Source: Promethearchaeota archaeon (lineage in GTDB: Archaea > Asgardarchaeota > Lokiarchaeia > Sigyniarchaeales > Promethearchaeaceae). From it: a stretch of DNA of 32,000 nucleotides. Within the stretch, counting starts at the first letter, position 1; every line of letters starts with the position of its first letter. Location of the stretch: NCBI GenBank assembly GCA_016933055.1, contig JAFGBS010000009.1, positions 300,001 to 332,000 on the forward strand. Direction: 5' to 3'. The notes under the pieces were generated by a model, which did no database searches, was not told the DNA's origin, and worked only from the letters and a program-made list of their open reading frames with translations. A program made the position numbers and the translations under genes. This document shows, piece by piece, positions 8,298 to 14,245 of the stretch.

Positions 8298-8954
8298 ATG
8301 CCTAGAATTGAATTTTACATTATTTCCAAGACTGGTCTAATGTTGCATAAGTTCTCCGTTAAAAAAACACAAGATGATAATAAGGATCAGCTCGTGTCGG
8401 GATTATTATCTGCAATTAATTCTTTTGCAGCTGATATTGGTTGGGCTAGTGGAGTTTCAATGATTCGTTCGGGATCGATTGAAGCACGGTACAGTCAAGG
8501 AGAGTTTGTATTTGGAATATTGATAGTAGATTATTATAAACCAGGAATTGCAGATTCTGAATCCGCATTGGATGCTTTTGCCAGCGATATCACAGAACGC
8601 TTTGAATCTGTTTATAAAAAAGAATTAGAAGAAGCAAAGCAGTCTAATCGTTATAACATAACTCTATTTCAAGATTTTGGGAAACAAATAGATGAGATAA
8701 TCCTTGAAAATAATGATCAAATTGCGGAAATCTATCAACAACAAATTTTAATACAATCTATATATGCTGACGTGCCCCAAGAGATAATATTACCTTTGTT
8801 ACATCGTTTGAAATCTGGAGAAAATATTCTGGATGAACTACCGGATTTAATTTTGGAGTATCCCATTATGTTAAAAGCAATAGAGAAAACTAACATGGAT
8901 TATGAGCCTGTATGGACGATTTTTAAGGTACCTCTATTGAAGAAAGAATCCTAA
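8298..8954 (+). CDS. Longin-like domain protein
   Basis: FYIISKTGLMLH...QLVSGLLSAINSFA...FGILIVD...ITERFESVY matches the longin beta-beta-alpha-beta-beta-beta-alpha-alpha pattern. Start at 8214 would leave only 4 bp to the divergent gene, so ATG 8298 is preferred. Confidence 0.6.
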   Translation: MPRIEFYIISKTGLMLHKFSVKKTQDDNKDQLVSGLLSAINSFAADIGWASGVSMIRSGSIEARYSQGEFVFGILIVDYYKPGIADSESALDAFASDITERFESVYKKELEEAKQSNRYNITLFQDFGKQIDEIILENNDQIAEIYQQQILIQSIYADVPQEIILPLLHRLKSGENILDELPDLILEYPIMLKAIEKTNMDYEPVWTIFKVPLLKKES

Positions 8955-9859
8955 AAATCAAAAAAGATATTCATTTCCTGAGAATCTTTATCATATAGAG
9001 TTTTAATAAATGAGATTTCATTAACAATACGCATTAGTGTTGCTTTAATCTCTTTTATTCGATTTCTTTGATTTATCATGGATCTAGTGATGTCTTTCTC
9101 ACTTACTCCCGCACGGGAACCTTTATATCTTAAATAAATATCTTCAAGAAATTTATTGACACTGATACCAGAATCCAAGGATTCAAACAATCGGTAGAAA
9201 AATGAAAAGATTATCTCTCGTTCTAATGGTTCATCCACAAAATTAGAAATTACTTCTTTAATTCGAGTGGTTATTTCTTTTTTTTCTGCAAAAAGATTTT
9301 CGCGATCTTGCTCAACACTTCTTAAATTTAACTCAATAGTACGTAATGCTCTTCCTAATTGGATCAAGGCTGCATTTTGTGCACGGCGTTCAGCCAATTC
9401 TATTGAATCCTCGGCATCCTTCTTAACACCGTAAATAGATACTTGAAGAGGATATTTCGATTTCTTTTTTTCTAAACGTTTGTATACATCTTGAGTAGCT
9501 TGAGAGACATTTTTCACCGAATAATTGAAATAGTTTAAAGAAAAATCAAGATTAAGGGATAGGCTAATTTCGGGATTTAAACAGTAGAAAACTTTCTTTT
9601 TATCTCGTTCATCTTTAGAATATGGAATGATTAATCCCACTTGCAATAAATTTTCAAGATGCTTTTTGATTGCAGGTTTACTAATTCCAAGGTCTTTAGA
9701 TAAATTCGTTGCTATACTAGGAGTCTTTGATAATTTCATTAGTATTTTCCTATCGATCTCATTTCCCAAGATATTCATCAATAACTCGATATTTATTGAA
9801 CCATCTTCTTGTATAATTTTTAATGGTTCATTATCCGTTTGTTCTATTTCTGTTCCCAC
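8951..9859 (-). CDS. ArsR-like winged-HTH transcriptional regulator with C-terminal coiled coil (Phr/HSR1-like)
   Basis: ILGNEIDRKILMKLS...LSKDLGISKPAIKKHLENLLQVGLI...KKKVFYCL, then a heptad-rich helix (LRTIELNLRSVEQDRENLFAEKKEITTRIKE); directly downstream of cdc48. Confidence 0.8.
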   Translation of the reverse strand: MGTEIEQTDNEPLKIIQEDGSINIELLMNILGNEIDRKILMKLSKTPSIATNLSKDLGISKPAIKKHLENLLQVGLIIPYSKDERDKKKVFYCLNPEISLSLNLDFSLNYFNYSVKNVSQATQDVYKRLEKKKSKYPLQVSIYGVKKDAEDSIELAERRAQNAALIQLGRALRTIELNLRSVEQDRENLFAEKKEITTRIKEVISNFVDEPLEREIIFSFFYRLFESLDSGISVNKFLEDIYLRYKGSRAGVSEKDITRSMINQRNRIKEIKATLMRIVNEISFIKTLYDKDSQEMNIFFDF

Positions 9860-9879
9860 TTTCCATCCCTAAATATGTG

Positions 9880-9894
9880 TAAATCTTTTGTTAA
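9880..9894 (-). promoter_or_regulatory. Putative operator box upstream of the HTH regulator
   Basis: taaatcttttgttaa matches taaacctttagttaa (12777-12791) at 13/15 positions and lies 20 bp upstream of the GTG start at 9859. Confidence 0.5.
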
Positions 9895-9901
9895 AAAAAA
9901 A
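9893..9901 (-). terminator. Oligo-T (T9) tract immediately after the cdc48 stop
   Basis: Nine A on the + strand abut the TAA at 9902-9904; archaeal intrinsic terminators are typically U-tracts. Confidence 0.4.
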
Positions 9902-12124
9902 TTAGGAAAACATTGGATTAGGCAATGCACCTTCTAGCTTCTGGTAGGTTTTATTGGTACGTTGTGCTTCCTTTTCTACCGATTTCATAGCTTCCTCAAA
10001 ATGCTTCATTTCAATTACTAATTCACTGACATTTTTGTCAGAATCTGCAAAATTCTTTATCATAATTCCTTCCCGAATTGCAAGAATTGTTGCTTCTTGG
10101 CATAGGGCTTCAATGTCTGCACCAGTTTTACCCTCCATTCGTTTAGCTAACTCTCGGTAAGATATTCCTTTAGCCACCGGCCTTTCTTTCATATGTATCT
10201 CGAAAATTTTTTCTCGTGTATCAAGGTCTGGTAATGGCACCTCGATATGTCGTCCAAATCTACCTGCACGTAATAATGCTGGATCGATAATATCTGGTCG
10301 ATTGGTCGCTGCTATGATCACCACATTATTTAAAGCTTCCAAGCCATCCATTTCTGTCAATAATTGGGAAATAACGCGCTCTGTAACCTGACTATCGGCT
10401 CTACCCCCCCGCACAGGAGCTATCGCATCAATTTCATCAAGAAATATAATACAAGGTGCTGCAGAACGTGCTTTTCGGAAAGTCTCACGCACGGCCTTTT
10501 CACTTTCTCCAACCCACTTGGATAGAAATTCAGGTCCTTTGACGGAAATGAAGTTAACTTCACTTTCATGCGCTAATGCTTTGGCTAATAAGGTTTTTCC
10601 TGTGCCGGGTAATCCCCATAATAATATACCTTTTGGAGGTCTGGCTCCCATATGTTTGTATATATTCGGATATTTCAATGGCCATTCTATGATTTCGCGA
10701 AGTAATTGCTTTGCTTCCTCTAACCCGCCAACATCGTCCCATGTTTCAGGGGGGGTCTGAATAAACACTTCACGTAATGCAGAGGGCTCTACTTCTGTTA
10801 AAGCTCCATCAAAATCAGCTTTTGTCACAGATAGTGATTCTAAAAGTTCCAGAGGGATTTCATCCTCTTCAAGTTTCAAATCGGGTAGGATTCTGCGCAA
10901 AGTTTTCATCGCAGCTTCTTTTCCGATCATTTGAAGATCTGCACCAACAAATCCATGTGTTTTTTGAGCATAATAATTTAGATCTACATCATCGGCTAAA
11001 GGCATACCTCGGGTATGAATTTGCAGAATTTCCAGTCGGCCTTTCTTATCCGGTACCCCAATTTCAATTTCTCGGTCAAATCTTCCCGGTCGTCGAAGTG
11101 CTGGGTCTAATGCATTCTGACGATTGGTTGCACCAATTACTACAACATTTCCTCGTGGATCTAAACCATCCATTAAGGCTAACAATTGTGCAACTACCCT
11201 TCTTTCAACATCACCTTGAGTCTCTCCTCGTTTTGGTGCTATAGAATCCAGCTCATCAATGAAAATAATACTAGGTGCTTTTTCTTGTGCTTCCTTAAAC
11301 ACATTTCGTAAATTCTCTTCCGATTGTCCATAAAATTTAGACATTATTTCGGGTCCTGATAAATTAATGAAATGTGCATTCGTTTCATGTGCTACAGCCT
11401 TCGCCAGTAAGGTTTTACCAGTTCCTGGGGGTCCATAAAGCAGAACTCCTTTTGGAGGTTCAATTCCTAAGCGGTTAAATAACTCCGGATGTCTTAAGGG
11501 AAGCTCAATCATTTCTCGCACCTTTTGGATCTCTTCAGTTAGACCACCAATATCATCATACATAACCCTCTTATCCATTTGAAGGTCTTCGGGGCGGATT
11601 ACTTTGTCTTCAATAATAATTTCGGTATCTCGGTTAATTTGTACAGCTTCCCCTCTCGGACGAAATCCAACGATCGCAAAATCAAGGTCATAGTTCATGA
11701 TATGAAACCTGAGTAAATCTCCGGGAGATACTACCCGATTTTCCAATACTTGAGCGAAATATTGAGTATTTTTTAATCGCATTGCTCGGTCTACCCATGC
11801 AAAAGTTACAGATTCGGCAGGTTTAACCGTAATTTTCCGTACATAGACGCGTTCATCTAGAGAAGCATTCAAATTCCGTCTAGTGCTTCCATCTATTCGG
11901 ATAACTGCTTTTCCTGCGTCATCTCGGAATCCTGGCCATACTAAACATGCTGTTTTTTTTCCCATCAGAGGATTTTCTAGTTGAATAACATCTCCCGATT
12001 TAATTTGATATGCTGCTGCTAAATCAGGATCTAACCGAGCGATGCCTCTCCCCACATCTTTGGATCGAGCATCGGCAACTCGTAATGAGAGTTTGTCCTT
12101 ATCCTTTTCATTGGTTTTACTCAT
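9902..12124 (-). CDS. cdc48: CDC48/VCP/p97 family AAA+ ATPase
   Basis: N-domain ([19 protein letters not shown]), D1 Walker A GPPGTGKT / Walker B IIFIDELD / [10 protein letters not shown]2 GLPGTGKT / IIFLDEID / LRAGRFGR. Confidence 0.97.
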
Positions 12125-12131
12125 TCTTTTT

Positions 12132-12722
12132 CTATTCCTTTACTATTTTTATTTGATATATGTTATTATTACCATCTATTACTGTTTTCGTCTTATCTAG
12201 ATTAAAGTCTATGTTAAAATCTACCTTATAAGCAGTATACTCATTTTCACCGATAATAGTCACTTTATTTCCAGATTGGGATAATATTATTTGGTCTTTT
12301 TCAACGTTTGGCAATTCAATGGTCAAGAGTGCGGAATTTTCGTCTCTTTCAACTTCAAAAAAAGTATCTTCATAGTTAACAATATCATTATCGGGATTTT
12401 CGTTGATGGATACATTCTTAGCGTCCAGTACAGGTAAATTTATGGTCGGATTATAATTTCTACGAATAATTGCATTGGTATCGAATTTCATTCCTTTAAC
12501 CATGTCAAGAAGTGTTTTATCATCAACTAGTTCTCCATTAATTCGTATTTCGGGTTTGTCCATTCCTGTTCCAAAGCGGTATGATACTGAATGATGATGC
12601 ATATTCGGATTTATATCACTCAAATTAGGCAAATTGGCGATATTTCCAAATAATCGTTCAATCATTTCATCTAAATCTTTAAAATCAAATGGATCAAAGC
12701 CATCAATATCATTATTTTTCAT
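12132..12722 (-). CDS. hsp20: Small heat-shock protein (archaeal Hsp20, divergent alpha-crystallin domain)
   Basis: Acidic/Phe-rich N-terminus ([16 protein letters not shown]), SVSYRFG...KPEIRING, C-terminal [25 protein letters not shown]...NNIYQIKI; 7 bp upstream of cdc48. Confidence 0.7.
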
Positions 12723-12742
12723 ATATATTATTCCTCTTTTAA

Positions 12743-12809
12743 TTAACTAAAGGTTTACTATCTTATAAACCTTTGGTAAACCTTTAGTTAACAAGAAACC
12801 TTACGTTTT
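12743..12809 (-). promoter_or_regulatory. Putative hsp20-cdc48 promoter (TATA TTTATAAG at 12769-12762) overlaid by four AAC-N5-GT(T) operator-like boxes
   Basis: Boxes ttAACtaaagGTTta 12743-12757, taAACctttgGTaaa 12766-12780, taAACctttaGTTaa 12777-12791, gaAACcttacGTTtt 12795-12809; perfect 16-bp inverted repeat 12743-12758/12776-12791; SD-like GAGGA at 12736-12732. Confidence 0.7.
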
Positions 12810-12949
12810 TAAAAAACCTGAACATTATAAAAGAATAACTCCAACAAGTAACCTCACTCAGATTTTTATCATTATTTTAAAACAACCTAACTATTCTCAA
12901 TTGTTATTCATAAATTTTAACTTTTAATCTTAATAGATCTGCATGAGAG

Positions 12950-14245
12950 ATGCTTGAATCAATTTTTTTGGTCAAATTCAAATTCGATGATTTGGAAGAA
13001 TGCCTGAAATCCATGGACAATCCTTCCGAACAACCCGAAATTCCGGGTTCTCATGGCACAATAACTCATTTTTATCCCCAAATTTCCATTTCTCTTAATA
13101 ATTCTGGAGCAATTGGACGGATCATTCTACAACATCTTAACAAAATCCGCACTTCACAAAATTCAACATATCCTTTTTTTGAATCAAAAATTACTTCCTC
13201 CCTAGAGAGACATTCTGGTAAGAATTTAAGGGAAGATGATGCAGAAGAACGCTTATATGCGAAGCTATCTGGAAGTTATTTGAGTGGAAATTCTCCCATT
13301 GAAGATAATCCTATCCGATTAATCTCTACTATAGATACAGAAATATTATCAGATCATGCTTTACATTATCCTCAAAAACCAAAATCATCTCAAATTGATC
13401 TTCATCCTCAAAATATATATGATTCCTTAGTATATTCTTGTTTTCTGCCTTCTGATAAGATACTATGTTTAGTTTTCAGTAAAAATGATAATCCTTATGA
13501 TTACACAAAAGATATTGAAGATGCTATTGATGTCTTTATTTATTCTAATCTCGAAGAGTTTCACATCTTACCTGATAATGAAATTGAAACCGCATTAATG
13601 TCAGTTTATATAGATATCCGATCCCGCTCACTAATTTTAACCGAGGATTGTTCTTTTTTTATCGGTCAAGATGAATTACGAGAGCGATTGATATCAGATA
13701 GTATCAATAAAATAATTAAGGTTTTCTTATACGGTATTGATAATGTGGGTAAGAGTTCCTTTATGCGTTATTTGAAAACCAACAAGTTTGATTTAGACTA
13801 CTTCAGTCCCACGAAAAAATTCATCGTTCATAGAATTCCTCTACCCCAAGGATATAAGATCATCTGCTGGGAAATGCCGGGTCAGAAAAAGTTTCGACGA
13901 GTATGGCTAAGAGGAGTTCAAGAAAGTAATATTCTTCTCTTCATGCTTGATGCTAGTGATGAAGAGCGATTTCTTGAAGCCAAACGGGCATTTTGGTCCA
14001 TTGTTACTCGGTATGAAGTAAAAAATGTTCCCGTATTATTCATAGCAAACAAAATTGATCTAATTGATAACAAAACCAAATTAAGTAAAATTGAACCTTT
14101 TTTTTCCCTACCGGAGTTACAAGATCGGAAATGGTCAATAAAATTCACAAGCCTAGTTACGAAAGAAGGGATAAAAGATGTAATTGATTGGATTACGGAA
14201 ACGGTTAAAGAAAATCTTCTCGAAGACATTAAAAAAGTAATATAA
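12950..14245 (+). CDS. Fusion of an uncharacterised N-terminal region (possibly longin/uDENN-like) with a C-terminal Arf/Sar-like small GTPase
   Basis: G1 GIDNVGKS, G2 SPT, G3 WEMPGQ...FRRVW, LLFMLDASDEERF, G4 NKID, G5 TSLVTKEG. The N-terminal fold call is only a guess from SCFLPSDKILCLVFSKNDNPYDY. Confidence 0.85.
   Translation: MLESIFLVKFKFDDLEECLKSMDNPSEQPEIPGSHGTITHFYPQISISLNNSGAIGRIILQHLNKIRTSQNSTYPFFESKITSSLERHSGKNLREDDAEERLYAKLSGSYLSGNSPIEDNPIRLISTIDTEILSDHALHYPQKPKSSQIDLHPQNIYDSLVYSCFLPSDKILCLVFSKNDNPYDYTKDIEDAIDVFIYSNLEEFHILPDNEIETALMSVYIDIRSRSLILTEDCSFFIGQDELRERLISDSINKIIKVFLYGIDNVGKSSFMRYLKTNKFDLDYFSPTKKFIVHRIPLPQGYKIICWEMPGQKKFRRVWLRGVQESNILLFMLDASDEERFLEAKRAFWSIVTRYEVKNVPVLFIANKIDLIDNKTKLSKIEPFFSLPELQDRKWSIKFTSLVTKEGIKDVIDWITETVKENLLEDIKKVI

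Follow-up and report, generated by a model that had tools for sequence, protein, structure and literature searches.

Characterisation of heat-shock regulators in archaea has been limited to two proteins of hyperthermophilic Euryarchaeota, Phr and HSR1 (PMC9133787). Both are repressors (PMC9133787, PMC10746257) that control hsp20, cdc48-type genes and their own genes (PMC9133787; PMC5852551; PMC10746257). HSR1 binds the site CTAAC-N5-GTTAG, is encoded in an operon with hsp20 and autoregulates (PMC9133787). The Phr site, 29 bp long, lies across the start site, and Phr blocks the recruitment of RNA polymerase (PMC9133787); palindromic Phr sites are found before HSP20 and before VAT, the Cdc48 homologue (PMC10746257). 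Phr and HSR1 both belong to arCOG01684, and the circuit, with hsp20 and CDC48 as targets, has been suggested to be ancestral in archaea (PMC5852551).

Literature searches for an account of such a regulon in Asgard archaea found none. In bacteria, the dnaK and groE operons are preceded by a palindrome, CIRCE, which is a 9-N9-9 repeat bound by the repressor HrcA; the repressor is released upon proteotoxic stress.

Here we report on a window of 32,000 nucleotides (C17:300001-332000) from the genome of an Asgard archaeon found in sediment. The assembly amounts to 3.76 Mb in 36 contigs, with 35% GC, and its 3264 called ORFs were taken as the gene total. A first-pass annotation of the window had described four tandem boxes with an AAC-N5-GT(T) core lying over the promoter of hsp20 and cdc48 genes, and had read them as a cooperative repressor array homologous to the euryarchaeal heat-shock element.

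The operon and its regulator gene

The locus comprises three genes on the minus strand, preceded by promoter elements that were predicted by reading the sequence:

12132..12722, (-) strand: sHSP-like gene, 196 aa, operon gene 1, with a C-terminal alpha-crystallin-type domain
9902..12124, (-) strand: Cdc48/VAT AAA+ ATPase gene, with Pfam domains CDC48_N, CDC48_2 and two AAA domains
8951..9859, (-) strand: Phr/HSR1-like winged-helix regulator gene, 302 aa, last gene of the operon, recognised by Phr homology
12762..12769, (-) strand: predicted TATA box TTTATAAG, preceded by CCAAAGG, an A-rich BRE-like sequence
12733..12736, (-) strand: Shine-Dalgarno-like GAGG, 10 nt before the ATG

The sHSP-like product matched Pfam ArsA_HSP20 (E 8.4e-5) and, under the cut-off of that model, the NCBIfam archaeal Hsp20 family (E 9.8e-6). 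The cdc48 product reached 984.6 bits with TIGR01243 (NCBIfam), which is over the cut-off. Only 7 nt separate hsp20 from cdc48, and 42 nt separate cdc48 from the regulator gene. The boxes sit in the 227 nt of intergenic DNA that precede hsp20, the ATG of which is at 12722; on the other side of this region, an Arf-family GTPase gene starts at 12950, divergently from hsp20. About 25 nt before the ATG of this Arf-like gene lies TTTTAATC (12922-12929, (+) strand), from which the mRNA would be leaderless. A second good TATA-like box on the hsp20 side, TTTTATAA, is found at 12825-12832 (-), ~100 nt before the hsp20 ATG.

The genetic context given in the first-pass annotation, an hsp20-cdc48 promoter with a candidate regulator encoded at 8951-9859, was recovered: the sHSP-like gene is followed downstream by cdc48 and by a winged-helix gene whose best matches are to Pyrococcus Phr. 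Compared to PDB entries with phmmer, the regulator gave 2P4W (P. furiosus Phr) as best match, with an E value of 2.9e-9 over residues 25-196, a stretch that runs from the wHTH domain into the following helix. An AlphaFold model built with 20 orthologues (mean pLDDT 65.8) contained a confident wHTH (24-94) followed by a long helix (150-207), and had 2P4W as its top Foldseek match (E 2e-6). The top NCBIfam match was Phr_regulator (E 1.5e-9), at 37.7 bits for a cut-off of 320, and identity to Phr was ~23-25%. As judged by sequence and model, the protein belongs distantly to the Phr/HSR1 group and does not qualify as an equivalog. It was also the sole strong match when the source genome was searched with the regulator as query, the other match having an E value of 2.2e-4.

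A phased array around the predicted TATA box

On the gene strand, the promoter reads GTTAAC-TAAAG-GTTTAC-CAAAG-GTTTAT(AAG), 6 nt, GTAAAC-CTTTA-GTTAAT, then GAGG and ATG. All four boxes of the first-pass annotation were present at their coordinates. They are listed below with their scores on a 17-nt matrix, for which five sites served as training set, boxes 1 and 3 among them and box 2 left out:

12742..12758, (-) strand: putative operator copy 1 (box 1), GTAAAC-CTTTA-GTTAAT, matrix score 19.9, one arm of a 16-nt inverted repeat
12765..12781, (-) strand: putative operator copy 2 (box 2), GTTTAC-CAAAG-GTTTAT, matrix score 15.2
12776..12792, (-) strand: putative operator copy 3 (box 3), GTTAAC-TAAAG-GTTTAC, matrix score 21.9, second arm of the inverted repeat
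12794..12810, (-) strand: box 4, doubtful as a binding site, with the AAC-N5-GTT core only, outside the 11-nt register, matrix score 2.0, which is background

Boxes 1 and 3 were said to form a perfect 16-nt inverted repeat, and they do, with arms at 12743-12758 and 12776-12791 and 17 nt between them. The distance of 11 nt given for boxes 2 and 3 was also correct, and belongs to a wider register: five GTTAAC-like hexamers start at 12742, 12753, 12765, 12776 and 12787, with spacings of 11, 12, 11 and 11 nt, and all five lie on one face of the helix. The middle hexamer is overlapped by the predicted TATA box TTTATAAG.

The three putative copies differ in their position relative to the promoter elements. 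Copy 3 is directly upstream of BRE/TATA, where other genera of the family have the site in most of their dnaK promoters and in several hsp20 promoters. Copy 2, whose left hexamer is common to copy 3, overlaps BRE/TATA. Copy 1 follows the predicted TATA box and precedes the start codon; its centre is 28-29 nt from the ATG, a position matching that of the sites before dnaK, hsp20B and hsp20C (see below). The arrangement initially described, with box 2 over TTTATAAG (12762-12769) and box 1 between it and the start (ATG 12722), is in agreement with these positions. The centre of box 4 is ~26 nt downstream of the TATA-like box TTTTATAA.

Definition and rarity of the motif

The AAC-N5-GT(T) core that had been used to define the sites turned out to be too loose. 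The sequence AAC-N5-GTT occurred 7 times in the window, for 8.0 expected, and 844 times in the genome, 11.8% of these being intergenic for an intergenic DNA content of 11.9%. Intergenic enrichment was sought genome-wide for AAC-N5-GTT and for its spacer variants N3 to N7, and none was found. Because of this chance frequency and lack of intergenic bias, the core was abandoned as a genome-wide signal in favour of a 17-bp palindrome. From the sequences compared, the motif is GTTAAC-N5(A/T-rich)-GTTAAC, with three credible copies in the array (1, 3 and 2), not four. The notion of four operator boxes therefore holds for boxes 1, 2 and 3, which fit the 17-bp palindrome, and fails for box 4, with its background score.

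By these more demanding measures the array is rare. Perfect 16-nt inverted repeats with a spacer of at most 40 nt number 2 in the whole 3.76-Mb genome, the array included. The other one, at C34:10872-10905, has the arm TCACTAGTGAGTTCAC and a 2-nt spacer. At least three AAC-N5-GTT within 70 nt are found at the array only, genome-wide, and the array is one of two places with at least four AC-N5-GT. Matrix scores of at least 15 were obtained at just 7 positions of the genome.

A small predicted regulon in the source genome

In order to keep the search for other targets non-circular, the genome was queried with the 16-nt arm of the window alone. With at most 2 mismatches, 6 other matches were obtained, of which 4 were intergenic; the genes that these precede are hsp20B, hsp20C, the regulator gene and one for a proteasome subunit. 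Allowing 3 mismatches added dnaK, a second site at hsp20C, and box 2. The two further sHSP genes behind arm matches were identified by Pfam; the copies before the proteasome subunit and regulator genes are weak matches. Five of the 7 foreign promoters matched belong to proteostasis genes, and we estimate the chance of such an outcome to be of the order of 1e-8, assuming that ~40 of the 3264 genes belong to this class, which was set post hoc. Perfect TTAAC-N5-GTTAA sequences are found 4 times in the genome, and both intergenic copies precede genes of the set, dnaK and hsp20B, at 27 and 30 nt. More generally, the site centre is 27-31 nt before the start codon in six promoters, and in the promoter of the paralogue hsp20B the succession of TATA box, site, Shine-Dalgarno sequence and ATG is identical to that at the hsp20 of the window. 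Downstream of dnaK, dnaJ and then grpE follow on the same strand.

The small sHSP gene at C30:59081-60300, which stands behind a regulon site, has a second HSP20-family gene downstream of it in the same orientation, and its own promoter has an extra, weaker copy of the arm ~100 nt upstream.

Recurrence of the motif in front of other chaperone and protease genes had been put forward as a check in the first-pass annotation, and the genome scan bore this out for the dnaK and other sHSP promoters, but not for the thermosome and most proteasome genes. In a check by gene class, which covered thermosome, proteasome and Hsp20-type genes, the 3 thermosome genes, 4 of the 5 proteasome genes, the canonical Hsp20 gene and two more sHSP genes were without the motif, their best matrix scores of at most 8.3 being background. 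The absence of the motif from thermosome genes, 4 of the 5 proteasome genes and canonical Hsp20 means that it marks a small regulon and is not a general heat-shock element. All three thermosome genes share GACTTAGAC, located 3-4 nt upstream of a TATA-like box (C17:363470-363560, C6:106283-106370, C17:272210-272303), which may be a second, separate chaperone cis-element.

The arm copy before the regulator gene deserves a separate description:

9879..9894, (-) strand: weak candidate autoregulatory site, arm copy with 2 mismatches, 28 nt before the regulator GTG

In the region between the two genes (9860-9901), a T9 tract comes directly after the cdc48 stop codon, and the arm copy follows. The T9 tract may act as a partial terminator. 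In G001, a genome of the same genus, this arm copy was not conserved.

Conservation of locus and motif across the order

Among 41 related genomes, the hsp20-like gene was found in 33 and the regulator gene in 36, the two sharing contig and strand at a distance of ~3 kb. Synteny of the hsp20-cdc48-regulator trio extends across the order, in the family of the source genome (f1) as well as in its sister family (f3). Fifteen further Promethearchaeota loci had the order hsp20, cdc48, regulator wherever the contig was long enough.

Conservation upstream of orthologous hsp20 genes, which the first-pass annotation had put forward as a check, was then scored on distinct promoter windows of 230 nt. The pattern GTNAAN-N5-NTTNAC was present in 24 of the 36, compared to 3 matches in the remaining 149 kb of the same loci (~0.005 per window), a contrast that is somewhat optimistic as the pattern was chosen after the sequences had been seen. 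In f1, hsp20 promoters contained GTTAAC-N5-GTTAAC or variants of it, such as GTGAAC-N5-GTTGTC. In f3, all hsp20 promoters had a 6-5-6 element of the form GT[CA]AA[TG]-N5-[GAC]TT[TG]AC, and in its 22 genomes the centre of this element is ~27 nt downstream of the centre of a TTTTTATA-type TATA box, where the Phr site of Pyrococcus also stands.

At dnaK, palindromes of the form xxxAAC-N5-GTTxxx were detected in 12 of the 13 other f1 genomes (GTTAAC..GTTAAC, GACAAC..GTTGTC and GCCAAC..GTTGTC, for example). The 13th, G007, has GTCAAC-N5-GTTGAC ~177 nt upstream of dnaK, making 13 of 13 if it is counted. The f3 dnaK promoters, used as a negative control, had the pattern in none of 16 cases. Several of them (L224, L226, L228, L231, L234 and others) contain a palindrome ATGATC-N5/6-GATCAT, ~120-150 nt before the dnaK start and beside an A/T-rich TATA-like run, which suggests that the f3 dnaK operon is under a different regulator. 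As far as the sequences tell, the placing of a bacterial-type chaperone operon under an archaeal Phr/HSR1-type site appears to be specific to f1.

The location of the site relative to the promoter varies within f1. In most other genera of the family it is 0-14 nt upstream of the TATA-like box, and in most dnaK and several hsp20 promoters of these genera the palindrome lies ~100-112 nt before the ATG. Across relatives, the half-sites keep their base identities (GT.AA. and.TT.AC), while complementarity between them is often lost. Since it is base identity that is kept, not complementarity, recognition by a protein rather than a hairpin is indicated. The recognition helix of the regulator reads SKPAIKKHL or SKQAIKKHL in f1 and SRQAVHSQL in f3, for half-sites GTTAAC/GACAAC and GTCAAT/GTAAAT respectively. 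Helix and half-site may thus have changed in parallel, though a single contrast between two families makes this a weak indication.

The closest relative, G001, has its hsp20 gene at a contig end, with the promoter unassembled. A BLAST search of this genome with 12600-13300 gave spurious matches only, inside a membrane-protein gene. Metagenome contigs were searched for related loci, and no relative was found. A pattern scan of these contigs for three phased hexamers returned 120 loci, which were discarded as an unrelated conserved element, having no hsp20, cdc48 or regulator gene nearby. A ~40-nt element, GGAGTTGGGTATGTTAACC...GTTGTTTAT, is near-unchanged in more than 80 unrelated metagenome contigs (L088-L207), often near contig ends, and has no relation to hsp20 or cdc48. 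Lastly, a regulator alignment scan of genome contigs retrieved loci of the Promethearchaeota type, one labelled Odinarchaeota and one mislabelled as bacterial, and no euryarchaeal HSR1/Phr locus.

Comparison with described systems

Compared to the published description of HSR1 (AF1298 of A. fulgidus), the locus has the same three partners, as an autoregulated operon of regulator, cdc48-type AAA+ ATPase and hsp20 genes; here, autoregulation would follow from co-transcription. The likeness to the HSR1 site noticed in the first-pass annotation is real: both are palindromes with a 5-nt spacer, 8 of the 10 specified positions are common to the two, and the shared part of CTAAC-N5-GTTAG and the present motif is TAAC-N5-GTTA (PMC9133787). 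The differences are that the regulator gene is first in the A. fulgidus operon and last here, that the outer bases are C/G in the HSR1 site and T/A here, and that the protein has 302 aa with an extra C-terminal part. Moreover, three overlapping or adjacent copies bracket the TATA box, the predicted regulon includes the dnaK-dnaJ-grpE operon, and the host is a sediment Asgard archaeon instead of a hyperthermophilic euryarchaeon.

Phr (PF1790/TK2291; 2P4W) is the best match by sequence, fold and NCBIfam model, with a wHTH followed by a long helix in both proteins. It also has a palindromic site near the start site, which is a predicted one in our case, and targets that include hsp20 and VAT (PMC10746257). 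However, its 29-bp element, TTTA / TGGTAA / AAAA, is unlike GTTAAC-N5-GTTAAC, the identity of ~23-25% goes with a score far under the NCBIfam cut-off, and the target genes of Pyrococcus have a site each, with the regulator encoded outside the operon. As for HrcA/CIRCE, the palindrome before a dnaK-dnaJ-grpE type operon makes it a functional analogue, with a protein family and a motif that are unrelated to those found here.

We conclude that the locus is very probably a new example of a known archaeal switch, and not a new kind of system. Judging by sequence, the TAAC-N5-GTTA common to Archaeoglobus and the present genome fits, and supports, a circuit that is ancestral in archaea (PMC5852551).

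What binds the array, and to what effect

We consider it likely that the boxes are an operator array for a winged-helix heat-shock regulator of the Phr/HSR1 family, most likely the 8951-9859 product. The heat-shock element proposed in the first-pass annotation is supported by the Phr-like regulator, the HSR1-like motif, its recurrence and its conservation, to which we add binding and repression by analogy.

A real operator might serve an activator or a dual-function factor that recruits TFB/TBP from sites upstream of BRE/TATA. Archaeal activators, TFB-RF1 and Ptr2 among them, have their binding sites upstream of the BRE, and this is where, 0-14 nt from the TATA-like box, the palindrome stands in most dnaK and several hsp20 promoters of other f1 genera, as well as copy 3 in the array. 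We nevertheless regard an activator as unlikely, given that the sites before dnaK, hsp20B and hsp20C of the source genome and copy 1 are downstream of the predicted TATA box, that copy 2 overlaps it, and that the f3 site is, in 22 genomes of 22, ~27 nt downstream of the TATA centre, as for Phr. The two characterised members of the family are, in addition, repressors (PMC9133787, PMC10746257). Another possibility is that the operator belongs to some other transcription factor, the neighbouring Phr-like gene being there by coincidence or binding other DNA. The distant match of its wHTH to Phr leaves some room for this, but the two families with the promoter palindrome both keep the regulator gene in synteny with hsp20-cdc48, no second strong match to it exists in the genome (next E 2.2e-4), the motif agrees with the site published for its homologue HSR1, and half-site and recognition helix shift together between families. 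We hold such a coincidence to be quite improbable.

The array could also act at the level of RNA, if a transcript started upstream, for instance from TTTTATAA, and folded into a 5'-UTR hairpin working as an RNA-thermometer-like sHSP switch. Bacterial sHSP genes are classic targets of RNA thermometers, the fold of 12715-12800 (-), with an energy of -22.8 kcal/mol (z = -4.7), pairs GUUUCUU with GAGGAAU, in which the GAGG ribosome-binding site is contained, and the two arms are identical even at spacer positions, which vary among the other sites. Such a stable fold is however automatic with two inverted operator copies. It would require a start upstream of 12800, while the proximal layout of TATA box, site, Shine-Dalgarno sequence and ATG is the same as at hsp20B. 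The other promoters of the regulon have a single 6-5-6 palindrome, which would fold weakly and would probably be interrupted by the start site, and the half-sites of relatives, as mentioned above, often do not pair. A purely RNA-level switch is thus very improbable. A combination of the two levels is hardly more than speculative: the five hexamers would serve as a DNA platform on which the regulator oligomerises across the TATA box, and a hairpin in RNA from the upstream start would mask the ribosome-binding site. If true, an RNA-thermometer-like element would be proposed for an archaeal sHSP gene for the first time, on top of an operator going back to the ancestor that Euryarchaeota and Asgard archaea have in common. 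Finally, a functionless origin, by chance likeness or by recent duplication within this A/T-rich intergenic DNA, would account for the chance frequency of AAC-N5-GTT in window and genome and for the background score of box 4. It is contradicted by the genome-wide and comparative results, as the inverted repeat is one of 2 genome-wide, the three-core cluster is unique, five other proteostasis promoters have the motif at a fixed distance, and it is conserved across two families. We give it next to no credence.

Returning to an operator array bound by the Phr/HSR1-type regulator, the following mechanism can be proposed. The recognition unit would be the 17-bp palindrome, whose hexamers, 11 bp apart on one helix face around an A/T-rich spacer, suit a dimer. 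Dimers of the operon's own regulator on copies 3, 2 and 1 would cover the promoter from BRE/TATA down to the expected start site. Under normal conditions, by analogy with Phr and HSR1, the bound protein would bar TBP/TFB or RNA polymerase from the promoter, and upon proteotoxic or heat stress it would be released. The same regulator would also control dnaK-dnaJ-grpE and two more sHSP loci, by way of single sites located 27-31 nt ahead of the start codon, and co-transcription of the regulator gene with the operon would close an autoregulatory loop.

In this scheme, we infer what binds, whether it represses, whether binding is cooperative and which stress acts as the signal, whereas the anatomy of the sequence, the rarity of the motif, its recurrence at proteostasis promoters, its conservation and the homology of the regulator to Phr are observed. 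The choice of repression over activation, as read from site positions, is less certain than the rest. A position upstream of TATA can also serve activators in archaea, so that in most other f1 genera, where the site is 0-14 nt upstream of the TATA box, the bound protein could either block TFB or recruit it.

Significance

The analysis provides a concrete cis-element and a small predicted regulon for Lokiarchaeia-type archaea, conserved with drift across the order. The regulon would comprise three sHSP loci, cdc48, the regulator gene, dnaK-dnaJ-grpE and possibly one proteasome subunit gene. The bacterial-type dnaK operon, which has the site in f1 and is without it in the sister family f3, would represent a case of regulon rewiring. 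For cultured Asgard strains, these promoters and their candidate regulator may offer ready material for stress reporters and for genetics.
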